Sequence record: MK962758
Direction: 5' to 3' (one strand)
Length of the DNA stretch: 64,000 nt
From: Shigella phage JK55
The translations under genes and the position numbers were made by a program. Each line of letters begins with the position of its first letter. Position 1 is the first letter of the stretch. Below are positions 25,490 through 54,293 of this stretch, one piece after another. Under the pieces are notes generated by a model, which was given only the letters and a program-made list of their open reading frames with translations, did no database searches and had not been told where the DNA came from.

Positions 25490-25566
25490 CTCTGTTTAGC
25501 TCAGCTTGGTAGAGCGTTCCGTTTGGGGCGGTAAGGCCGGAGGTTCAAGTCCTCCAACAGAGACCA
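25490..25566 (+). tRNA. tRNA-Pro (anticodon TGG)
   Basis: Hand-folded cloverleaf: 7-bp acceptor CTCTGTT/AACAGAG, D-arm GCTC..GAGC, anticodon loop TTTGGGG, T-arm GGAGGTTCAAGTCCTCC, CCA encoded. Confidence 0.7.
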
Positions 25567-25573
25567 AATTAAT

Positions 25574-25651
25574 GTTCCAGTAGACAAAATGGTATAGTCA
25601 CCACTCTTTCAAAGTGGATATCTGAGGGTTCAAATCCCTTCTGGAACGCCA
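25574..25651 (+). tRNA. tRNA-Glu (anticodon TTC)
   Basis: Acceptor GTTCCAG/CTGGAAC, anticodon stem CCACT/AGTGG with loop CTTTCAA, T-arm GAGGGTTCAAATCCCTT, CCA encoded. Confidence 0.6.
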
Positions 25652-25738
25652 GTTTTGACAGAAGACCAATTACAGCAAACTGAATCTACTCATCTGACAC
25701 GAAATCGGACAAAGAAGATATTTGGTCTGGTCATTAAG
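25652..25738 (+). ncRNA. repeated structured element, copy a (ACAGAAGACCAATTACAGCAA ... TTGGTCTGG)
   Basis: Shares 5' motif and covarying closing stem with copies b, c, d. Confidence 0.4.
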
Positions 25739-25741
25739 AAT

Positions 25742-25818
25742 TGCGGGTATAGAGAAAGGGCGTCTCACATGTCTCATTAGCATGGTATCGGCAGGTTCGA
25801 CTCCTGCACCCGCCTCCA
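25742..25818 (+). tRNA. tRNA-Met or Ile2 (anticodon CAT)
   Basis: Anticodon loop CTCATTA, T-arm GCAGGTTCGACTCCTGC, acceptor about 6/7 bp, CCA encoded. Confidence 0.55.
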
Positions 25819-25819
25819 A

Positions 25820-25892
25820 ATTTACAGAAGACCGTTTACAGCAATACTTATTAAATTTTTAGCGGAAAAATTGAAAGATGCGGTCTGGTAAT
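25820..25892 (+). ncRNA. repeated structured element, copy b (ACAGAAGACCGTTTACAGCAA ... CGGTCTGG)
   Basis: As above; closing stem AGACCG/CGGTCT. Confidence 0.4.
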
Positions 25893-25901
25893 ACTAAACA
25901 T

Positions 25902-25975
25902 GGTTAGGAAGCACATAAGGTATGTGCGGTCGCCTGTTAAGCGAATGGCACAGGGTTCGAATCCCTGACTAACCG
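25902..25975 (+). tRNA. tRNA-Asn (anticodon GTT)
   Basis: D-arm GCAC..GTGC, anticodon loop CTGTTAA, T-arm CAGGGTTCGAATCCCTG; no CCA encoded. Confidence 0.55.
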
Positions 25976-25986
25976 CAAAATTTAAA

Positions 25987-26075
25987 TGTGTCGTTATCCC
26001 GTAGATGGTAGCGGTGGGGACTGTAAATCCCTTGTCATTGAGACTCGGTAGGTTCGACTCCTACACGGCACACCA
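25987..26075 (+). tRNA. tRNA-Tyr (anticodon GTA), long variable arm
   Basis: Anticodon loop CTGTAAA, about 15-nt variable arm, T-arm GTAGGTTCGACTCCTAC, CCA encoded. Confidence 0.6.
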
Positions 26076-26080
26076 ATAAA

Positions 26081-26158
26081 GGTTATGTAGTTTAATTTGG
26101 TTAAAATACTCCCCTGTCACGGGAGATGATGAGGGTTCAAATCCCTTCGTAACCGCCA
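26081..26158 (+). tRNA. tRNA-Asp (anticodon GTC)
   Basis: Anticodon stem CTCCC/GGGAG with loop CTGTCAC, T-arm GAGGGTTCAAATCCCTT, CCA encoded. Confidence 0.6.
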
Positions 26159-26216
26159 ATTTTGAGAGGGCTATTTAGCCCCTCCCTTAAAGAGTTCTTA
26201 CGAGTATTCTTTAAAG

Positions 26217-26296
26217 GAGTAGAAGACCAAATACAGCAAGAATGTATGATATTTTCAAGCCAATTCAATTTTGAAAAAATTTAAAACTTGGTCTGG
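26217..26296 (+). ncRNA. repeated structured element, copy c (AGAAGACCAAATACAGCAA ... TTGGTCTGG)
   Basis: As above; closing stem AGACCAA/TTGGTCT. Confidence 0.4.
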
Positions 26297-26306
26297 CTCA
26301 ACAAAT

Positions 26307-26450
26307 TTACAGAAGACCGTTTACAGCAAAACTTAAACAATCTATTTCTCGGTAAAGAAAAGGCGAAGGTTCGATTCCTTCACTCGGCAGAGGTCGAGTT
26401 GGTGTAATGGTAGCACTTAAGATGATAAACAACGGTCTGGTAATTATCTT
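26307..26450 (+). ncRNA. repeated structured element, copy d, expanded; contains tRNA-like T-arm (GAAGGTTCGATTCCTTC) and D-arm-like segment
   Basis: Closing stem AGACCGTT/AACGGTCT; internal T-loop motif and TGGTGTAATGGTAGCAC D-arm-like segment, but no complete cloverleaf found. Confidence 0.35.
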
Positions 26451-26585
26451 TGTAGATAAGTTATTAAGCTTACCTGTGAGTATGCGACCACAAAGGGTGA
26501 AAGGGTAAATTCTAGATTTAAACCCAAAAAGTCACATCGCTACAGACCTTAAGCAAGTCTGGGTAGCTTATCTACAAAGATAATT
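26441..26585 (+). repeat. 19-bp perfect inverted repeat (TAATTATCTTTGTAGATAAG / CTTATCTACAAAGATAATT) enclosing 105 bp
   Basis: Arms at 26441-26460 and 26566-26584; candidate RNase III-type processing stem or miniature inverted-repeat element. Confidence 0.6.
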
Positions 26586-26589
26586 TAAT

Positions 26590-26665
26590 GGAAGTGTAGC
26601 AGAATGGTGATGCGGCAGACTTTTAATCTGACAGGCGATGGGTTCGAATCCCTCCACTTCTACCA
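26590..26665 (+). tRNA. tRNA-Lys (anticodon TTT)
   Basis: Acceptor GGAAGTG/CACTTCT, anticodon loop CTTTTAA, T-loop TTCGAAT with weak T-stem, CCA encoded. Confidence 0.5.
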
Positions 26666-26669
26666 AAAT

Positions 26670-26746
26670 GGTTCAGTCGCAGATAAGGTAATGCAAGGGT
26701 CTCATAAGCCCTATGAATGTGGGTTCGAATCCCATCTGAACCTCCA
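26670..26746 (+). tRNA. tRNA-Met or Ile2 (anticodon CAT), second copy
   Basis: Acceptor GGTTCAG/CTGAACC, anticodon stem AGGGT/GCCCT loop CTCATAA, T-arm GTGGGTTCGAATCCCAT, CCA encoded. Confidence 0.6.
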
Positions 26747-26748
26747 AT

Positions 26749-26823
26749 TGTGGGTTAGCATAAATGGTAATGCAAACGGCTGATAACCGTTAGAAGAGGG
26801 TTCGATACCCTCACCTACAACCA
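26749..26823 (+). tRNA. tRNA-Ile (anticodon GAT)
   Basis: Anticodon stem AACGG/CCGTT loop CTGATAA, T-arm GAGGGTTCGATACCCTC, CCA encoded. Confidence 0.6.
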
Positions 26824-26838
26824 AATTCAATAAAGTTG

Positions 26839-26867
26839 TTGACATTGAGATGTGACTACTTTATAGT
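26839..26867 (+). promoter_or_regulatory. sigma70-like promoter inside tRNA cluster (TTGACA-17-TATAGT)
   Basis: -35 26839-26844, -10 26862-26867; about 200 nt of non-tRNA sequence follows before the next tRNA. Confidence 0.55.
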
Positions 26868-27070
26868 ACCCTTAGTTTTCGTTGCGTAGCGTCTATTTTG
26901 CAAATTTAAAATAAATGCAAACGACAATGTTTTTCTGGCAGTAGCTTGATAGGCTAAACACCAGTGAGGTCTTCCAATCCCTCATCAAAGAATTTGGCGT
27001 ACTCGCCCACGGTATGATTAATAAGGTGGGCATCTTTAAGGGCTTTCTAAGAGAGTCTTTAAAGATTAAT

Positions 27071-27147
27071 GCACCCTTAGTTCAACTGGACAGAGCAAAT
27101 GACTTCTAATCATTGAGTTACAGGTTCGAATCCTGTAGGGTGCGCCA
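27071..27147 (+). tRNA. tRNA-Arg (anticodon TCT)
   Basis: Acceptor GCACCCT/AGGGTGC, anticodon stem AATGA/TCATT loop CTTCTAA, T-arm ACAGGTTCGAATCCTGT, CCA encoded. Confidence 0.65.
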
Positions 27148-27289
27148 ATTAGTTAGCAGATTACTTAGACGACCTAAGCGGGTCTTCCTGTAGGGAGGTG
27201 GTCTGTATCTCATGTTTTCCAGAACATGTAAATAATCTGAGAAGGGGCTTTACAGTGTTGAGATAATACGGTAAGTTTCGAATTATAGT

Positions 27290-27372
27290 ATGGGACGATG
27301 TTAAGACTCTAAGGCATGAGCAACGGCCTCCAAAACCGTTTCAAAGGGGTTCAACTCCTCCGTCCCATGCCA
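27290..27372 (+). tRNA. atypical tRNA-like gene (possible anticodon CCA in an enlarged 9-nt loop; isotype unresolved)
   Basis: Perfect acceptor ATGGGAC/GTCCCAT, T-arm AGGGGTTCAACTCCTCC, CCA encoded, but 83 nt long with about 7 extra nt between acceptor and anticodon arm; stem AACGG/CCGTT encloses CCTCCAAAA. Confidence 0.35.
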
Positions 27373-27385
27373 AAGTCTTATTAGT

Positions 27386-27473
27386 GGTAGGTAGCGGCTA
27401 ATGGTAGCCAAACTGTCTTGAAAACAGTTGCCACTGTAGAGATACGGTGAGGGTTCGACTCCTTTACTTACCG
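27386..27473 (+). tRNA. tRNA-Ser (anticodon TGA), long variable arm
   Basis: Anticodon stem ACTGT/ACAGT loop CTTGAAA, long variable arm, T-arm GAGGGTTCGACTCCTTT; no CCA encoded. Confidence 0.55.
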
Positions 27474-27730
27474 CCTAATAAGATTTAAAGCCAAGCTTCA
27501 TTCGGATGTTGCTTTGGTATCCCTCGTGTATTGTCGTACACACTAATAAAGCACCTAGTAGGTGTCACGGAGAAGAGATAATATCAAGCTCTCCAAAGGT
27601 TCTAGTCACCGGATTAAACAAGACTATGCAAAGACCTTTTTAGGTCTTTTTAGAGGGCTTCTAAGGTTATTACAGCTTGTTGTGGAACCTTGTTGCTTAG
27701 GTTCTTAGAAGTTCTCTAAAAAGGTTTAAT

Positions 27731-27808
27731 GGGAGATTGACGGTAATTGGTAAACCTATCTCGCTTAGAACGAGATGTTTGAGGGTTCGAATCCCTTGTC
27801 TCCTACCA
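27731..27808 (+). tRNA. tRNA with anticodon TAG (Leu by code) but short variable arm
   Basis: Anticodon stem TCTCG/CGAGA loop CTTAGAA, T-arm GAGGGTTCGAATCCCTT, CCA encoded; class-I length. Confidence 0.45.
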
Positions 27809-27815
27809 AATTAAT

Positions 27816-27891
27816 GCAGGTGTAGCAAAATGGTTATGCGGCTGACTCTTAATCAGTAAGACGATGGGTTCAATTCCCTCCACCTGTACCA
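27816..27891 (+). tRNA. tRNA-Lys (anticodon CTT)
   Basis: Acceptor GCAGGTG/CACCTGT, anticodon stem GCTGA/TCAGT loop CTCTTAA, T-loop TTCAATT, CCA encoded; paralog of tRNA-Lys(TTT). Confidence 0.5.
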
Positions 27892-27897
27892 AACAAT

Positions 27898-27973
27898 GGG
27901 GTCATAGTTTATATGGTTAAAATTCGAGTTTTGCAAACTTGGGAACTGAGTTCAATTCTCAGTGACTCCACCA
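27898..27973 (+). tRNA. tRNA-Ala (anticodon TGC)
   Basis: Anticodon stem CGAGT/ACTTG loop TTTGCAA, T-arm CTGAGTTCAATTCTCAG, CCA encoded. Confidence 0.5.
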
Positions 27974-27979
27974 ATTAGT

Positions 27980-28054
27980 GCATCCATAGTTTAAACGGGA
28001 AAATTACAGTCTTCCAAACTGAGGTTGAGGGTTCGATTCCCTCTGGATGCTCCA
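27980..28054 (+). tRNA. tRNA-Gly (anticodon TCC)
   Basis: Perfect acceptor GCATCCA/TGGATGC, anticodon loop CTTCCAA, T-arm GAGGGTTCGATTCCCTC, CCA encoded. Confidence 0.6.
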
Positions 28055-28060
28055 AACAAT

Positions 28061-28137
28061 GCTGCTTTCGTATAATTGGCTATTACACATCCCTTGTAAG
28101 GATGGAAATGCAGGTTCGAGTCCTGTGAGCAGCACCA
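28061..28137 (+). tRNA. tRNA-Thr (anticodon TGT)
   Basis: Anticodon stem CATCC/GGATG loop CTTGTAA, T-arm GCAGGTTCGAGTCCTGT, CCA encoded. Confidence 0.65.
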
Positions 28138-28140
28138 ATT

Positions 28141-28232
28141 CAGAGGTCAAGTGAAAGACCGCTGGTGTCAACTGAAGACCGTAACAAATTCCACGGAGTT
28201 GAGTTAGCGGCACAACTTCAGACCTCTTTCAC
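28141..28232 (+). ncRNA. structured non-tRNA element between tRNA-Thr and tRNA-Val (nested inverted repeats)
   Basis: AGAGGTC...GACCTCT outer inverted repeat, CTGAAG...CTTCAG inner repeat, contains the GAAGACCGT motif shared with copies a-d; no T-loop motif. Confidence 0.35.
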
Positions 28233-28307
28233 ACTCGCTTAGTTTATATGGTAAAACATCACCCTTACAAGATGAAGAAAAAGGTTCAAGTCCTTTAGTG
28301 AGTACCA
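28233..28307 (+). tRNA. tRNA-Val (anticodon TAC)
   Basis: Acceptor ACTCGCT/AGTGAGT, anticodon loop CTTACAA, T-arm AAGGTTCAAGTCCTT, CCA encoded. Confidence 0.5.
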
Positions 28308-28308
28308 T

Positions 28309-28386
28309 GTTCCAGTATCCCAATTGGCAGAGGATGCAAGCTCAAACCTTGTATTAGTGACGGTTCGAATCCGTCTTGGAACACCA
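28309..28386 (+). tRNA. tRNA with anticodon CAA (Leu by code) but short variable arm
   Basis: Acceptor GTTCCAG/TTGGAAC, anticodon stem GCAAG/CTTGT loop CTCAAAC, T-arm GACGGTTCGAATCCGTC, CCA encoded. Confidence 0.45.
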
Positions 28387-28405
28387 ATTTTAAGAGGCTA
28401 TTTAG

Positions 28406-28963
28406 ATGAGATATTTGAAGTATGCTTCATGGATTTTCTTAGCTTTACTAGAACCATTTGCAGCAACCCTAGCAGTCATCTTAGCACCTTTCGTAGTTCC
28501 ATTCTACAGTGAGAAGAAAGGGCATCTACCTTTTGGATTCAGATGGATGGAGACCTATGACAACCCGATTGATGGTGATAAAGGCCACGTTGAGAGATGG
28601 GCTAAGATTAGAAAGATTGGCAAGCTCGGTGTTTATATGCAGAGAGTTGGATGGCTCTGGAGAAACAAAGCTTATAACTTCTCTTACCATGTATTAGGAA
28701 GAGATGTAAAAGATGTTACTAAGTGGAAAGGTAATATCAACGTAAGTTCTGACCCTGAAGATAATCAGACAGGTTATCTCCTAATGTGGAACAACAATGC
28801 TTGGGGATTATTCGCTTTTATTCCGTCAATTAAAATCTTTGGTAAACAGTTTTACTGGAGAATTTATGTTGGATGGAAACTAAAAAGTGTTGTCCCAGAA
28901 GAAAGAGCATTCTCAAGGGAAAGAGTTATGTTGGCATTCTTTATTCATCCACTGAGAAAGTAA
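28406..28963 (+). CDS. hypothetical membrane protein embedded in tRNA cluster
   Basis: N-terminal hydrophobic segments (IFLALLEPFAATLAVILAPFVVPF); AAGAGG RBS 9 nt upstream. Confidence 0.55.
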   Translation: MRYLKYASWIFLALLEPFAATLAVILAPFVVPFYSEKKGHLPFGFRWMETYDNPIDGDKGHVERWAKIRKIGKLGVYMQRVGWLWRNKAYNFSYHVLGRDVKDVTKWKGNINVSSDPEDNQTGYLLMWNNNAWGLFAFIPSIKIFGKQFYWRIYVGWKLKSVVPEERAFSRERVMLAFFIHPLRK

Positions 28964-28971
28964 AGATTTAA

Positions 28972-29047
28972 AGGGGATTAGTTTACAAGGTTAAAACCTC
29001 GGTCTTTGAAATCGAAGAAGTTGGTTCAATTCCAACATCCCCCGCCA
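28972..29047 (+). tRNA. tRNA-Gln (anticodon TTG)
   Basis: Anticodon stem TCGGT/ATCGA loop CTTTGAA, T-arm GTTGGTTCAATTCCAAC, CCA encoded. Confidence 0.55.
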
Positions 29048-29049
29048 AT

Positions 29050-29128
29050 GCTCCATTACTCCAATTGGCAGAGAGGCCAGACTTAAAATCTGTGTTATGT
29101 ATCGGTTCGAATCCGATATGGAGTACCA
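29050..29128 (+). tRNA. tRNA with anticodon TAA (Leu by code) but short variable arm
   Basis: Acceptor GCTCCAT/ATGGAGT, anticodon loop CTTAAAA, T-arm ATCGGTTCGAATCCGAT, CCA encoded; D-arm paralogous to the CAA tRNA. Confidence 0.45.
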
Positions 29129-29133
29129 AATTT

Positions 29134-29209
29134 AGCGGTATAGCATAACTGGCAATGCAGCAGTCTCTGAAGCTGTCTTATTAAGGTTCAAATCCTTATG
29201 CCGCTGCCA
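29134..29209 (+). tRNA. tRNA-Gln (anticodon CTG)
   Basis: Acceptor AGCGGTA/TGCCGCT, anticodon loop CTCTGAA, T-arm TAAGGTTCAAATCCTTA, CCA encoded. Confidence 0.5.
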
Positions 29210-29240
29210 CTTCTAAGGGTTCTTACGAGAGTCCTTAAAT

Positions 29241-29316
29241 GTGGCCTTATCATAAATGGTAATGACCCATGCTGTGAACATGGTCTATACGGGTTCAAAT
29301 CCCGTAGGTCACCCCA
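29241..29316 (+). tRNA. tRNA-His (anticodon GTG)
   Basis: Anticodon stem CCATG/CATGG loop CTGTGAA, T-arm ACGGGTTCAAATCCCGT, CCA encoded. Confidence 0.65.
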
Positions 29317-29322
29317 ATTTAT

Positions 29323-29398
29323 AGTCCAAGTAGCTTATATGGTTAAAGCGCGTGTCTGAAAAACATGAGAAGAGGGTTCGAATCCCACTGGACTACCA
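29323..29398 (+). tRNA. tRNA-Phe (anticodon GAA)
   Basis: Anticodon stem CGTGT/ACATG loop CTGAAAA, T-loop TTCGAAT, CCA encoded. Confidence 0.55.
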
Positions 29399-29416
29399 AT
29401 TTCAAAGGTGCTTAAT

Positions 29417-30149
29417 GAAAGAGATGACAGAACAAGGTAAGGAGATTTTTAATCTCTTAAAAACCGGTAAAGGGTTTTCTAACCCACTTATTACTGGTGC
29501 AGCAGTTCTCGGTGGAACCGTAGCTGCTTCTACATCACTTGTAAGCTCTATTAGTTCTGTAACAGACCCTACAATGCAGGAGAAACTTGTTGCTGCTGGA
29601 CTTACAACAGTCCTTCTAAACAGCTTTACAACAAGCCTTACAAGCACTACAGCAACTACTAAAACTCTGACAGACTACGGTCAAAAGTCTATTGATGAGT
29701 TTTCATCACGTATGCAGGTAGCAAAGGGGTATTCCAATGTTATGGGTGCAGCAGGAGAGCAAGTTGGTTGTACACCATTCAGTGGTATCATGGGTGTTGC
29801 TACAGAGTATGGTCAAAAAGCTATTAACATGATGAACAGTACACTAGATAGTGTTAATGGTGTGTTAAGTGACTTACAAGATGCTATTGATAAGGGTCTT
29901 GATACTGTTTCTGATTTAGCTAATCAGGCTGTTAGTAAGATTAATGAAGGTATTTCAAAGATTACAGCTTATGCAGATGAAGTTGTGCAGATGATTGAAG
30001 AAGAAGCTTCCCTTATTGCAGAGTACCTTAAAACGAATATCAATGGGTTCTTAGCAGGTATCTTACCAGACTGGTTTGATGATGCCTGTAAAACTGGTGT
30101 GATTGACACTATTGCAACACCAGAAATGAAGAGCGCATTACAGAAATAA
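29417..30149 (+). CDS. hypothetical protein (Ser/Thr/Ala-rich N-terminal region) embedded in tRNA cluster
   Basis: Start moved to ATG 29417 (AAAGGTG upstream) because the track start 29352 lies inside tRNA-Phe. Confidence 0.5.
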
Positions 30150-30150
30150 T

Positions 30151-30243
30151 GGAAGATTAACCCTAAAAGGTAAGGGAGCAGTTTGCTAAACTGCCAGTAG
30201 CTGAGAAATCGGTGTACCAGTTCAAGTCTGGTATCTTCCTCCA
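30151..30243 (+). tRNA. tRNA-Ser (anticodon GCT), long variable arm
   Basis: Perfect acceptor GGAAGAT/ATCTTCC, anticodon stem GCAGT/ACTGC loop TTGCTAA, about 20-nt variable arm, T-arm ACCAGTTCAAGTCTGGT, CCA encoded. Confidence 0.7.
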
Positions 30244-30247
30244 ATTT

Positions 30248-30323
30248 GAATCCGTGACAGAAATGGATATGTGCCTGTCTGCAAAACAGGTTTATAAGGG
30301 TTCGAGTCCCTTCGGATTCTCCA
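30248..30323 (+). tRNA. tRNA-Cys (anticodon GCA)
   Basis: Perfect acceptor GAATCCG/CGGATTC, anticodon stem CCTGT/ACAGG loop CTGCAAA, T-arm AAGGGTTCGAGTCCCTT, CCA encoded. Confidence 0.7.
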
Positions 30324-42028: not shown

Positions 42029-50029
<8,001 letters not shown>

Positions 50030-50031
50030 TA

Positions 50032-51180
50032 ATGGCAGTAGGTGAAATTCAAATTAGTGCCTTGCCTCAAGCAGCCTTACCAATTGACCTTAGTGATATC
50101 TTCCATCTTAAACAGGGTATCGAGGATAAGAGATGCACTCTTGAGCAATTACTTGCTCCACACTCAAGCCTAAGAAATAACCCTCATGGTGTTACTAAGA
50201 CACAAATTGGTTTAGATAACGTTATTAATGCTCTCCAGTTAGTTGCTGAAAATAACTTATCAGACATTGTTAATGTAGCTGAGGCAAGAGCAAATCTACA
50301 GATTATGTCTTCAGAAGAGGTTAATAATCTTATTCAACAACATATTGATGATAAGAGCAACCCACACAATACCACTAAGGCACAGGTTGGGTTAAGTAAT
50401 GTTCAGAACTGGGTGACATCTAACCTTTATAACGAGGATGCAGATAAGTATGCTACAGCAAGAGCAGTAAATAACTTGTACAAGGCTGTTCAGGCTTCTT
50501 ATCCAGTAGGTACTATCCATCTCTCTATGAATCCTGCAAACCCTTCTACATATTTAATTTGTGGAGGTACTTGGGAGTTAGTTTCAAAAGGAAGAGCACT
50601 TGTAGGTTATGATAGTGCTTCTAGGCCAGTTGGCTCAACGTTTGGTTCGCAGACTACTGCACTGACAGTTAACAACATTCCTGCACATACTCACTCAGTA
50701 TACGTCACTGGTGGTGGTCACACACACGGTGCAACGGCCTCTATCAGTGCTTTTGACTACGGTACTAAAGGGACTACAACGTTTGACTATGGAACAAAGA
50801 CTGTATCTACTTATGACTATGGTAACAGAACAACCAGTGCTGCTGGTTTAACACAAACAACATTCATTAATCGTGGTTATGCTGATGGTGGTTGGAGAGG
50901 TTTATCAGTTGAGGGGGCAAGCTATGACCCAAGAGCTACGCTGACAACAGCTAACAACCACACTCACTCTGTAGCAATTGGTGCACATAATCACACAGTT
51001 GGTATTGGTGCTCACAGTCATTCTGTTGCAATTGGCTCCCACAACCACTCAGCAACAGTAACAGTAACCGGAGCAGGTGAGCATTCGCACTCTGGCACAA
51101 CTGGCACAACTGGTTCTGGTCAAGCATTTAGCGTTGAACAGCCATCCTTCGTATTGTATGTATGGCAGAGAACAGCTTAA
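50032..51180 (+). CDS. tail fiber protein with C-terminal tail-collar-like domain and HxH repeats
   Basis: Motifs NIPAHTHSV, GGGHTHGA, NNHTHSVAIGAHNHTVGIGAHSHSVAIGSHNHS; C-terminus FSVEQPSFVLYVWQRTA shared with the next fiber. Confidence 0.65.
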   Translation: MAVGEIQISALPQAALPIDLSDIFHLKQGIEDKRCTLEQLLAPHSSLRNNPHGVTKTQIGLDNVINALQLVAENNLSDIVNVAEARANLQIMSSEEVNNLIQQHIDDKSNPHNTTKAQVGLSNVQNWVTSNLYNEDADKYATARAVNNLYKAVQASYPVGTIHLSMNPANPSTYLICGGTWELVSKGRALVGYDSASRPVGSTFGSQTTALTVNNIPAHTHSVYVTGGGHTHGATASISAFDYGTKGTTTFDYGTKTVSTYDYGNRTTSAAGLTQTTFINRGYADGGWRGLSVEGASYDPRATLTTANNHTHSVAIGAHNHTVGIGAHSHSVAIGSHNHSATVTVTGAGEHSHSGTTGTTGSGQAFSVEQPSFVLYVWQRTA

Positions 51181-51189
51181 TTTCTTTAC

Positions 51190-51210
51190 AGGGGCTGTAT
51201 AGCCCCTTTT
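51190..51210 (+). terminator. rho-independent terminator between fiber genes (GGGGCTGTATAGCCCC + TTTT)
   Basis: Perfect hairpin plus T-run. Confidence 0.55.
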
Positions 51211-51226
51211 AAGAGGAAAATTTATA

Positions 51227-53614
51227 ATGGCAGATTACAAGTTGAGTGAATTAAACTCAATTGATACAATTCGTTCAGACGACCTCCTTCATGTCAGGGT
51301 TAAAAAGAGACCTGAAATGCTGGGTGATGAAGACCGTCGAATGACCTATCAAGACTTCTTAGCATCTTTTAAACTAGAAAGGTTTGTCCAGATTGCTGGT
51401 AGCACTATGACGGGTGACTTAGGAATTGTCAAGTTACTTTATGGTGGTAAGGCAGTATTTGACCCTACAGGTTCTTCTGAGATTACTATGGGGGATGTTT
51501 TAAAGGCTTTTAAAATCAATGCAAATGGTCTTAAACTAACTATTGCAGATGCTTCAAGGTCTGCAACTGTTTATCATACTCTTAATAAGCCAAGTCCTAA
51601 TGAGCTTGGAATGAGAACCAATGAAGAGAATGATGCAAGATATGCAAGACTCGCTGTAAATAACGCCTTTAGGGCCACTCAAAATATTCTATCTGATAAT
51701 GAAACTATTATTGTTAAGAATGTTACACAAGGGATGCCGCTGTATATTCGCGGTCAAGATGCAGATGGCTCTAACAGGTGGTATCTAGGCAATGATAACA
51801 AAGGTACAGACAATCTTGTTTTAAAAAATGTTAAATCTGGTGCATATGTAGCTATTTTGGATAGCTTAATCACTGTGAACAAATCTATCCAGATTACTGG
51901 TCAAGTTCAGCCTTCTGACTTCTCTAACTTAGATGCTAGATACTTTACTCAGACAGCAGCTAATCAGAGATTTGCACAGTTAGTTGGTAATAACACATTC
52001 AGTGGTTTAAACACATTCAACCAACTAAGTGTTTTCAAAAAAGATGGTGAAGCAATTAGGCTACAGAATGCCAATGCTGCACAACCATTGTACATTAAGG
52101 CGATTGATAGCACAGGTGTCAACAGATGGTACATTGGTAATAGTAACGAAGGTGATAACGTAGCTCTAGAAAACTACAAAACTAGTGGCAAGATTACTGT
52201 AGGGACAAGTGTTAATATCAATAAAACACTAACTGTAACTGGTCAAGTTCAACCTTCAGATTGGACTAACATTGACTCTCGTTATGTTCTTATCGGTTCA
52301 TACGCAAATCTTGCTAAGAAGAATGAAGCTAACACATTCACTTTACAGCAGAATATTCAATCTGATGGTGAAGCATTAAGAATCTACAGCAAGGCTCAGA
52401 ATAATTCTTCTTACATTGTTGGTAAGAATACTGATAACACAAATAAGTGGTTTATCGGTTGTGGTACTAATGGTTCTGGTACGGCATCATTCCATAACTA
52501 CTTGACTGGTGCAAGACTCGATTTAGCTGACGAAGTTCTTCTGTCTAAATCTCTACAGATTACTGGACAGGTAAAACCTTCTGATTGGTCTAACTTAGAT
52601 GCTAGATTCTTGAAGGTTTCTGGAAGCACAGCAGCGAACCTTATTATTGACTCTACTAACCACGGTGTGATGACTGGTAAGCTTATCTCCATCCCAACTA
52701 GGGCTGACTGGAACAGACCACAAGGTTTTACAGCTATGGCTATAGCGCCTGATTCAAGTGTCATCCCAGACTTCCCAGCAGGTCCAATCGCATACCTACA
52801 CGTCTTTGCTAAAAGAGATACTAAAGGTGGTCAATTAGCATTCTTGGCAAACTACTCTACTAAGGGCATTTGGCTAGCGAGAAGTTTAACTTCAACTGAT
52901 GCGATTACCTTTGAGAAAATCTATACAGATGGTACTAAGCCAACCCCTTCTGAGCTTGGTGCATACACTAAAGCTGAAACTGACCAGAAGATTGCACAGG
53001 CAGTAAGTGACTCTACAGACCTTAACAAAATCTACCCAGTAGGCATTGTAACGTGGTTTAACAGTAATGTTGACCCTAATACAGCACTGCCTGGCCTAAC
53101 TTGGACGTATCTGAAGAATGGCGTTGGTAGGACTATTAGAATTGCAGCAGCAAATGGTTCAGATGTTGCTACAACTGGTGGTTCAGATTCTGTAACGTTA
53201 GCTGTTGGTAACTTACCTTCACACACTCACAGTTTTTCTGCTACCACTTCATCTTTTGACTACGGAACAAAAAACACTAACACGACTGGTGCTCACGCTC
53301 ACTCTGTAAGTGGCTCTACTTCATCTGATGGTTACCACAACCACGCTATCTCGTGGATTGGTCAGAACTCTACACACTACTCTGGTGGTGGTGGTGGTAG
53401 AATCGGTACAGGTCCGGGTTACACTGATGCGGGTGGTGCGCACACCCATACAATCTCTGGTACTGCCGCTTCTGCTGGTAACCATGCTCACAGTGTAGGT
53501 ATCGGTGCTCACACTCATACAGTTAGTGGTAACACTGGTGGTACAGGTTTTGGTTCAGCATTTAGTGTTACTAACCAGTTCTACAAGTTAATGGCTTGGG
53601 TAAGAACTGCTTAA
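51227..53614 (+). CDS. long tail fiber protein with internal about 100-aa repeats and C-terminal tail-collar-like domain
   Basis: Three repeats containing ITGQVQPSD(F/W)(S/T)N(L/I)D(A/S)R(Y/F); C-terminal [37 protein letters not shown] and [17 protein letters not shown]. Confidence 0.65.
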
Positions 53615-53693
53615 TCCCTTGTTGACTGATTGTTAAGATGGTGTTAATATTCTTTATGGGTATTCTCACCATCTTGGCTGATGAGGTGATTAA

Positions 53694-53891
53694 ATGCCTA
53701 CAATCCTAGCAATTCTTCTAAAAAATCTAGGTAGCTTCTTCTGGAAACTCATTTTATCCCTTCTAAGTGAATACATGATTGAGAAAGTGTTCTTTAGGCT
53801 TGCAAGATATCTTGCGAGTAAAACAGACACACCTATTGATGATGAGTTCGTAGATAACTTAGAAAAAGCTTTTAAGGGGGAGAATAAATGA
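53694..53891 (+). CDS. hypothetical small membrane protein
   Basis: 65 aa with N-terminal hydrophobic helix. Confidence 0.4.
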   Translation: MPTILAILLKNLGSFFWKLILSLLSEYMIEKVFFRLARYLASKTDTPIDDEFVDNLEKAFKGENK

Positions 53892-54259: not shown

Positions 54260-54267
54260 AATTTTAA

Positions 54268-54293
54268 GGCTCCTTTTTACGGGAGCCTTTTTT
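54268..54293 (+). terminator. terminator between convergent blocks (GGCTCC-loop-GGAGCC + TTTTTT)
   Basis: GC hairpin flanked by A-run upstream and T-run downstream. Confidence 0.65.

Follow-up and report, generated by a model that had tools for sequence, protein, structure and literature searches.

Short and long tail fibres with T4 gp37-type tips in Shigella phage JK55, and the exchange of fibre cassettes among Felixounavirus relatives

A 64-kb window of Shigella phage JK55 (MK962758), the whole stretch of DNA analysed here, harbors two neighbouring open reading frames (ORFs) on the + strand, at 50032..51180 (382 amino acids, aa) and 51227..53614 (795 aa), separated by a 46-nt spacer. They very probably encode the short and the long side fibres of a Felixounavirus myophage, here called the short tail fibre (STF) and the long tail fibre (LTF), each of which carries a receptor-binding tip of the type found in gp37 of phage T4. 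By megablast, the region is 94-98% identical to genomes of Felixounavirus, the genus of Felix O1-like myophages that infect E. coli and Salmonella, and the coverage of only 72-92% indicates that some of its internal pieces have no close match. An arrangement of two fibres with gp37-like tips is already known from two papers of 2025 based on cryo-electron microscopy (cryo-EM), and as that architecture is published the window holds no new kind of system. What can be added is modest, namely an unrecorded LTF mosaic with a rare, putatively knob-like cassette, evidence that shaft and tips vary by recombination, and a strong linkage between the tip alleles of the two fibres.

The first-pass annotation of this DNA had described two tail fibres with a common C-terminal module composed of a collar and HxH repeats. 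The two ORFs and their homology, as detected with BLASTP and with the T4 gp37 structure 2XGF, bear this out: STF 157-382 and LTF 603-795 are 31% identical (E=6e-18, 73 bits, BLASTP with composition-based adjustment). The annotation had named confinement of the similarity to the HxH repeats as the outcome fatal to its claim, and the similarity is not so confined. Smith-Waterman scores of separate segments, compared with those of 2000 shuffles, gave z=8.1 for the collar before the first HxH motif, z=12.4 for the approximately 30 residues past the last one, z=6.1 for the needle with every HxH masked, and z=16.5 for the collar and tail without the needle. For each segment the observed score was higher than that of all 2000 shuffles, which indicates true homology between the C-terminal modules of STF and LTF. 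The N-terminal parts of the two proteins, when compared with each other, show no sequence similarity (z=0.1).

The dense HxH repeats reported earlier are also present, with seven motifs in STF (aa 219, 230, 310, 319, 328, 337 and 351) and six in LTF (aa 666, 690, 704, 739, 753 and 762), and so are the three internal repeats of the longer protein, at aa 128-239, 240-353 and 354-461. Other elements of that description need to be reworded. Both proteins end with the quoted 17-residue motifs, and these are homologous, but with only 8 of 17 residues in common the term 'near-identical' is an overstatement. A collar is present as proposed, but it is of the gp10_C or gp37-D10 type (PF21939) rather than of the tail-collar family, since neither protein matches PF07484 at E<=0.1. 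The Gp10_C model (PF21939) scores 65 bits on STF, above its cutoff of 27, and 22 bits on LTF, which is under that cutoff.

The tip of T4 gp37, made up of the D10 collar and the D11 HxH needle, is a homotrimer in which iron is octahedrally coordinated by HxH histidines (Islam et al. 2019, PMC6957217). Its collar, the D10 domain, consists of residues 811-881 and 1010-1026, its stem of residues 882-931 and 960-1009 with seven irons held by HxH histidines, and its tip of residues 932-959 (PMC6957217). In phmmer searches, 2XGF, which comprises T4 gp37 785-1026, matches STF with E=3e-14 and LTF with E=1.4e-18, and BLASTP against the T4 gp37 tip gives 32% identity (E=2e-16) and 38% (E=3e-23), respectively. 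A three-way alignment of STF, LTF and T4 gp37 covers the collar, the FDYGTK motif, the HxH stem and the C-terminal strand, and in the collar it aligns the signature YPVG...NxP(A/S)HTHS with T4 811-881. On the descending and ascending strands, HxH motifs number 2 and 5 in STF, 3 and 3 in LTF, and 3 and 4 in T4. At the level of sequence alignment, the layout of a small tip between the two stem halves and a chain that ends in the collar also holds, as T4 932-959 and 1010-1026 can both be mapped onto the two fibres. The three-dimensional path of the chains in the STF and LTF tips would then follow those in 2XGF and in Bas63, a Felixounavirus whose fibres have been imaged (see below).

This alignment bears on the assignment of the terminal motif, which by this reading is not the receptor contact. 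Its counterpart in T4 is gp37 1010-1026, it is the most conserved piece of the module among relatives (94-95%), and it is thus assigned to the strand with which the chain comes back and closes the collar. The tip that faces the receptor is predicted from sequence to lie approximately 80 residues upstream of the terminal motif, in the least conserved segment (22% in STF and 31% in LTF).

The likeness to T4 thus comprises the collar, the HxH stem, a small tip in mid-sequence and a C-terminal strand that runs back to the collar, and there are marked differences as well. The T4 fibre is built from four proteins (gp34-37), whereas each gp37-type tip of the window is part of a fibre encoded by one gene (382 and 795 aa). 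Two different fibres of the window have such a tip, while the short fibre of T4, gp12, has a tip of another kind. The tip sequences themselves are unrelated to that of T4; no role for OmpC is known, and the receptor named in the literature is the lipopolysaccharide (LPS) core. T4 gp34, gp35 and gp36 had no tblastn matches in the window, and gp37 matched only the two ascending stems, with 66% identity between T4 gp37 960-994 and that of LTF.

STF is the orthologue of Bas63 gp26 (98.2% identical to bas63_0026) and matches the tail fiber family phrog_2097 over its full length (E=1e-127). The N-terminal part of its collar, aa 155-217 (50494..50682), begins with YPVG, aligns with T4 gp37 811-881, matches both 2XGF and the C-terminal structures of T4 gp10, and has a mean identity of 84% among relatives. 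It is followed by the descending stem, aa 218-282 (50683..50877), with two HxH motifs and a triplicated FDYGTK-like motif. The triplet lies at aa 240-268 (50749-50835) and reads AFDYGTK / TFDYGTK / TYDYGNR; there is one copy of the motif in LTF and one in T4 gp37, with a degenerate DLGTK just ahead of the T4 copy. The tip subdomain, aa 283-303 (50878..50940), aligned with the T4 tip 932-959, is hypervariable, with a mean identity of 22% among relatives, and is the predicted site of receptor contact. The tip allele is shared with Bas63, as aa 254-325 are 100% identical. The ascending stem, aa 304-368 (50941..51135), has five HxH motifs followed by a Gly/Thr-rich run, and direct DNA repeats with a spacing of 27 nt are found in it at 50952-51054. 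The greater length of the STF stem and its larger number of ascending HxH motifs (five, against three in LTF) suggest that stem length is adjusted by adding repeat units. The collar-closing C-terminal strand, aa 369-382 (51136..51177), of sequence EQPSFVLYVWQRTA, aligns with T4 gp37 1010-1026, is 94% conserved among relatives and makes up most of the motif quoted in the first-pass annotation. In a public assembly collection the exact STF protein occurs in 52 blocks, where it is partnered with LTFs of 777, 782 and 783 aa.

LTF matches the tail fiber family phrog_4277 over its full length (1224 bits) and is a mosaic relative of Bas63 gp27. It is 67.2% identical to bas63_0027 overall, with 97% in the N-terminus, 98% in the collar, 88% in the head, 94% in the C-terminus and 27-50% in the repeat cores, and an exact-sequence look-up found no record of the same protein. 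The N-terminal region, aa 1-127 (51227..51607), which ends in a KPSPNELG linker and is 91-95% conserved among relatives, would be the baseplate-binding part by analogy with Bas63. The three tandem repeats of approximately 110 aa that follow, R1 (128-239), R2 (240-353) and R3 (354-461), extend over 51608..52609 and combine variable cores with conserved linkers. Their periods are 114 and 108 aa, they are 33-42% identical in pairwise comparisons, and each is closed by TGQVxPSDxxNxDxR[YF]. Pfam gp37_trimer (PF20744) matches LTF with 201.7 bits (cutoff 21.7, E=1.4e-60) in three stretches that coincide with R1-R3. The length of LTF differs among relatives in repeat-sized steps: six of the related loci (L007, L017, L019-L021 and L024) encode LTFs of 840-849 aa, and the 695-aa LTF of Salmonella phage S19cd (L037, 2460-4547) is without one repeat of approximately 100 aa, with gaps in place of 59 of 60 R3 positions. 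According to the Bas63 paper, the variability seen among species of the International Committee on Taxonomy of Viruses (ICTV) does not come from deletions or from variable repeat number (PMC12609058).

Past the repeats, LTF continues with the V cassette, aa 462-570 (52610..52936), a rare allele of a putative knob-like domain, and with a conserved linker, aa 571-600 (52937..53026), which forms the right-hand junction of V and is 90% conserved among relatives. The N-terminal part of the collar, aa 601-664 (53027..53218), is aligned with T4 gp37 811-881 and conserved to the same extent (90%). The descending stem, aa 665-706 (53219..53344), has three HxH motifs and one FDYGTK, and the ascending stem, aa 733-781 (53423..53569), has three HxH motifs and then a Gly/Thr-rich run. 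Between them, the hypervariable tip subdomain, aa 707-732 (53345..53422), with a mean identity of 31% among relatives, is aligned with the T4 tip 932-959 and is again the predicted receptor contact. The collar-closing strand, aa 782-795 (53570..53611), is aligned with T4 gp37 1010-1026 and 95% conserved.

Direct structural evidence on such fibres comes from two relatives. For Bas63 (Escherichia phage JohannRWettstein, Sci Adv 2025), cryo-EM has revealed gp26 as a short fibre of 430 Å and gp27 as a long fibre of 630 Å, both on the baseplate and folded up along the sheath, and the data are accompanied by AlphaFold 3 fits (PMC12609058). Both have a gp37-like collar, an HxH needle and a head tip, with seven and six HxH motifs, respectively, and the long fibre has β-helix repeat domains that resemble T4 gp34 (PMC12609058). 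The phage of the window is like Bas63 in genus, gene order, STF (98.2%), STF tip allele and numbers of HxH motifs (seven and six). It differs in the segment equivalent to LTF aa 462-570, which is another allele in Bas63 (27% identity, gapped), in the repeat cores (27-50%), and in the tip-proximal motif, which is HHxH in Bas63 and YHNH in the window. The other relative, Sf14, is a Mooglevirus with adjacent fibre genes of 391 and 792 aa, whose fibres of 430 Å and 630 Å are retracted along the sheath (Commun Biol 2025, PMC11821841). It belongs to another genus of the Ounavirinae and is likened to the window by description. Its authors proposed that the two fibres 'may bind different receptors' (PMC11821841).

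How the two fibres vary was read from STF and LTF sequences extracted from 29 related loci and aligned, the identities given here being means relative to the window. Conservation is high (83-99%) in the N-terminal regions and C-terminal strands of both proteins, in the collars and in the linkers that separate the repeats. The variable ones are STF aa 261-320 (down to 26%), the LTF repeat cores (29-55%), LTF 461-560 (5-16%) and LTF 701-740 (37-38%). Within each variable module the pairwise identities are bimodal, with many pairs at 10-40%, fewer at 70% or above and little in between, and among 28 phages each module falls into 8-13 discrete allele classes. The modules also combine in different ways. 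Locus L002 has the same STF as the window (100%) and nearly the same R2 (99%), with R1 at 35% and R3 at 23%. In L014 and L015 the backbone is a distant one (wedge 1 86%, LTF N-terminus 83%), and yet R3 (90%), LTF head (84-90%) and STF head (78%) are shared with the window. The corresponding changes in the DNA are sharp, and breakpoints lie inside the C-terminal module, not at its edges. The comparison with phage ekra illustrates such a transition in LTF, where flanks of 94.6% and 94.7% identity enclose aa 462-570 at 20%; the last matching residues ahead of the replaced piece are ...SNLDAR, and the match is restored exactly from KPTPSELG onward.

Fibre variation in this group is thus best read as cassette exchange by recombination at conserved linkers, in units smaller than the whole C-terminal module. 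The exchanged units are the small tip with the adjacent stem, each repeat core, and the cassette at LTF 462-570. The earlier proposal of a swappable host-range cassette is thereby partly supported, in that pieces are exchanged among relatives, but the unit is not the whole C-terminal module, in which collars and termini stay in place. Mosaic fibre genes have long been known in other phages, and the recombinational variation of shaft and tips is a refinement, not a discovery. The Bas63 study likewise noted that the tips are highly variable and that, unexpectedly, so are the repeat domains; to account for the latter, its authors considered that mutations may be tolerated there, that the domains may recognise hosts, or that they may help to evade defence systems, and recombination is not mentioned (PMC12609058).

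The V cassette stands out as the unusual piece of the window. Among 50,697 phage records its best match is in Salmonella phage S19cd (85.5%), followed by EcSzw-2 (75%) and then by a match at 55%, and 22 records match in all. An exhaustive HMMER search of 1.84 billion cluster representatives yielded one close relative (71%) and 38 remote ones (E=1e-9 to 1e-3), the latter being long fibre-like proteins (P0002-P0039). V alone retrieved nothing in a word-indexed protein search, the V segment alone matched no Pfam family, and neither STF and LTF nor three V-like proteins matched an NCBIfam model; the V-like domains thus apparently form a family that has no curated Pfam or NCBIfam model. The domain spans approximately 100 aa and is characterised, in the window (52610-52981) and in the hits, by the motif W.KP.G...YW.V..RD..GGY...W.K[IV]YT...KPTP.E.GA. 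In 6 of 10 Pfam-scanned proteins the V-like stretch lies upstream of a Peptidase_S74 chaperone domain, by approximately 50-100 residues or, in two cases, by much more. V-like domains elsewhere are thus usually found upstream of such a chaperone domain, while that of the window is upstream of a gp37-type collar.

A profile built solely from the remote members finds V along its entire length in the window, in S19cd and in EcSzw-2 (E about 7e-27), and on the equivalent segment of Bas63, ekra and others it matches the last third only. Judged by sequence, V is not a diverged fourth copy of R1-R3 (z -0.5 to 1.0); only its KPxPxEL end resembles the end of the LTF N-terminal region (z=3.3). An AlphaFold2 model of the V monomer is a compact all-β domain with a predicted local distance difference test score (pLDDT) of 73.5, or 74-88 in the core. 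Comparisons of this moderately confident model with knob and shaft domains (R2 pyocin fibre 6CL6, Mu tail fibre S/S' 8JU3, T4 gp34 5NXH) gave low scores. On this basis V may represent a rare class of alleles that encode a knob-type domain of the shaft, for which a role in binding is conceivable. Between S19cd and the window, V is 83% identical and the two tips are 28% and 41% identical, so V, which S19cd shares without sharing either tip, tracks neither the tips nor the host genus.

The tip alleles, by contrast with other module pairs, travel together. By tblastn, the STF tip region is found in 43 GenBank phage records at an identity of at least 75% and the LTF tip region in 42 at an identity of at least 80%. 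The two lists, which include Bas63 and Suspvirus SUSP1 and SUSP2, agree except for phage mistaenkt. In the 28-locus sample the alleles of STF head and LTF head occur in 11 combinations, and those of any other module pair in 17-22. Carriers of the tip alleles of the window were mostly isolated on derivatives of E. coli K-12, while phages isolated on O157:H7 carry other alleles. The linkage fits the idea that both tips are matched to one type of host surface.

From these data and from the relatives of known structure, the following mode of action can be proposed. STF and LTF would each form a homotrimer, by homology with gp37. The N-terminus of STF would dock on wedge 2 of the baseplate, and that of LTF on the small platform protein whose gene directly precedes those of the fibres. 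Each chain would leave the collar and descend a thin stem in which HxH pairs from the three chains probably hold metal ions, form a small distal tip that touches the host, and climb the stem again until its last strand re-enters the collar. LTF would differ by a shaft with three repeats of approximately 110 aa and a knob-like domain. Host specificity would most likely reside in the hypervariable tips, STF 283-303 and LTF 707-732. As the tip subdomains differ from each other, each fibre probably touches a part of its own on the LPS core, the presumed receptor; the dual receptor specificity put forward in the first-pass annotation is, judged from the sequences, a plausible hypothesis. By analogy with T4, the longer fibre might scan the surface and the shorter one commit the phage to infection. 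The variable pieces, i.e., tips, repeat cores and knob cassette, would be exchanged among related phages by recombination at the conserved linkers. A more far-reaching version of this picture appears rather unlikely: it adds to cassette exchange in the shaft the idea that shaft domains, V included, act as extra lateral sites for host recognition or glycan binding, giving the fibre more than one specificity determinant, and that the linked tips are a co-selected pair that reads one type of LPS core.

Several observations weigh against parts of the assignment as T4 gp37-type side fibres and of the model built on it. With two HxH motifs on the descending and five on the ascending strand, the STF stem should differ in geometry from that of T4, with its three and four. 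No homologue of the T4 chaperone gp38 was detected in the 64-kb window (tblastn, E<=0.01), and assembly therefore need not follow the T4 route. In Sf14, no Mu-type fibre chaperones were found (PMC11821841). The fibre density of Bas63 was too weak for side chains, and its metal sites were not resolved (PMC12609058). The LPS core is required according to the literature (PMC8594841; PMC11821841), but no paper was found that gives a receptor to either fibre in the genus. The mosaicism was read from the alleles and breakpoints of only 28 loci and three GenBank phages. Lastly, the tip linkage may result in part from shared ancestry and from isolation on the same host, and not from functional coupling.

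Of the other explanations, the one that concerns the very existence of homology is that the C-terminal resemblance is purely compositional, as the stems are indeed rich in His, Gly, Ser and Thr and contain short DNA repeats. Tested with the shuffles, it was rejected: the similarity stays significant when the needle is removed (z=16.5) or the HxH motifs are masked (z=6.1), 0 of 2000 shuffles score as high, the composition-adjusted BLASTP value is E=6e-18, and each protein independently matches the 2XGF collar, so that its probability is practically negligible. It is also extremely unlikely that the shorter protein belongs to the baseplate, as a wedge or tail pin like T4 gp10, and is not a fibre. 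Gp10_C is its sole Pfam match above threshold, T4 gp10 structures are matched with E=7e-6 to 6e-4, and a GenBank record (H94) labels the orthologue 'baseplate wedge subunit and tail pin'. The gp10 match is limited, however, to the collar region, aa 144-221, while the gp37 tip matches better and over aa 146-352; STF has seven HxH stem motifs, and its 98%-identical orthologue in Bas63 was seen as a 430 Å fibre (PMC12609058).

The remaining alternatives accept homologous tips and differ as to their history. A recent tandem duplication in the phage lineage, with redundant tips that bind the same receptor, would account for two adjacent genes on the same strand, for the homology and tight allelic linkage of the tips, and for a resemblance between the last approximately 30 residues of STF and LTF that exceeds the resemblance of either to T4 (z=12.4). 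Yet the two tips are only 31% identical (73 bits), and the LTF tip is nearer to that of T4 gp37 (38%, 81 bits) than to that of STF from the same genome. The tip subdomains are of unequal length and have no evident similarity, the stems differ in length, with seven and six HxH motifs, and both genes are present in 29 of 29 related loci, including those of Suspvirus (phiSUSP1/SUSP2-type), and in Mooglevirus Sf14 (PMC11821841). Any duplication must thus be old, and a recent one is improbable. The modules that the annotation had called duplicated are homologous in their tips, but the term overstates their kinship; the two tips belong to the gp37-tip family either as old paralogues or as separate acquisitions. 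Finally, the whole C-terminal module might be a host-range cassette that moves as a unit from phage to phage and perhaps also from one fibre to the other. The N-terminal parts of both proteins are conserved and the C-terminal parts more variable, and exchange between the two genes is conceivable in principle, as their collar and terminal sequences are similar. However, collars (84-90%) and C-terminal strands (94-95%) are conserved, and only the tip and the adjacent stem vary within the module. The DNA breakpoints lie inside it, the similarity between STF and LTF tip DNA is limited to short matches of 60-80%, and most of the variation of LTF is outside the tip module, in R1-R3 and V. A block swap is therefore very unlikely, and the exchange of smaller units among related phages is preferred.

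The two genes matter in that they determine the host range of a Felix O1-type phage, and phages of this type are used in Salmonella diagnostics and biocontrol. For host-range engineering, the terminal motif should be treated as a structural anchor, with the predicted receptor-facing residues at STF 283-303 and LTF 707-732. The conserved linkers TGQVxPSDxxNxDxRY and KPTPSELG are the natural exchange junctions, and the near-perfect co-occurrence of tip alleles suggests that tips are best swapped together.

The order of genes around the fibres, wedge 2, wedge 1, a platform protein of approximately 100 aa, STF, LTF, a small ORF and a holin, is kept in ekra, in Bas63 and in 28 IMG/VR loci. Wedge 2 (47398..48867, + strand, 489 aa) matches Pfam Baseplate_J (E=5.5e-16) and has the same length as Bas63 gp23. 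In Bas63, the STF N-terminus binds domain 2 of wedge 2A, and wedge 2 is the attachment site of the short fibre (PMC12609058). Wedge 1 (48870..49727, + strand, 285 aa) is the counterpart of Bas63 gp24 and matches the baseplate protein family phrog_4017 (E=1.5e-175), with a mean identity of 97% to 19 relatives. The 100-aa protein encoded at 49727..50029 (+ strand) corresponds in position to bas63_0025 and is regarded as the equivalent of Bas63 gp25, from which its role as an LTF platform is taken (PMC12609058). An ORF of 99-104 aa is found between wedge 1 and STF in 29 of 29 related loci. On the 3' side of the fibre genes are two small ORFs (65 and 123 aa), followed on the other strand by genes for thymidylate synthase and dihydrofolate reductase. 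Elsewhere in the window, an array of 25 tRNA genes at 25490-30323 (+ strand) covers most amino acids, as expected in a Felix O1-like phage.

Three non-coding elements were noted near the fibre genes. The STF-LTF spacer (51181..51226, + strand) contains a 7-bp GC-rich hairpin followed by UUUU, in addition to the ribosome-binding site of LTF. The hairpin has a folding free energy (dG) of -15.9 kcal/mol (z=-2.7). A consensus terminator scan made no call on it, and no terminator is therefore claimed, but it could attenuate read-through into the LTF gene. Directly past the LTF stop codon there is a strong RNA hairpin at 53612-53692 (dG -31.7 kcal/mol, z=-5.5, with 0 of 200 shuffles folding as well), and it overlaps with a promoter of the sigma-70 type (TTGACT-17-TAATAT, 53622-53650). 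The hairpin also pairs with the Shine-Dalgarno region of the ORF of 65 aa (53694..53891), located ahead of that of 123 aa (a holin by annotation in relatives), and it may exert translational or transcriptional control of lysis genes. A bidirectional terminator-like hairpin at 54266-54289, with a 9 bp stem and T-runs on both strands, separates the + strand block of fibre and lysis genes from the convergent - strand genes for thymidylate synthase and dihydrofolate reductase.

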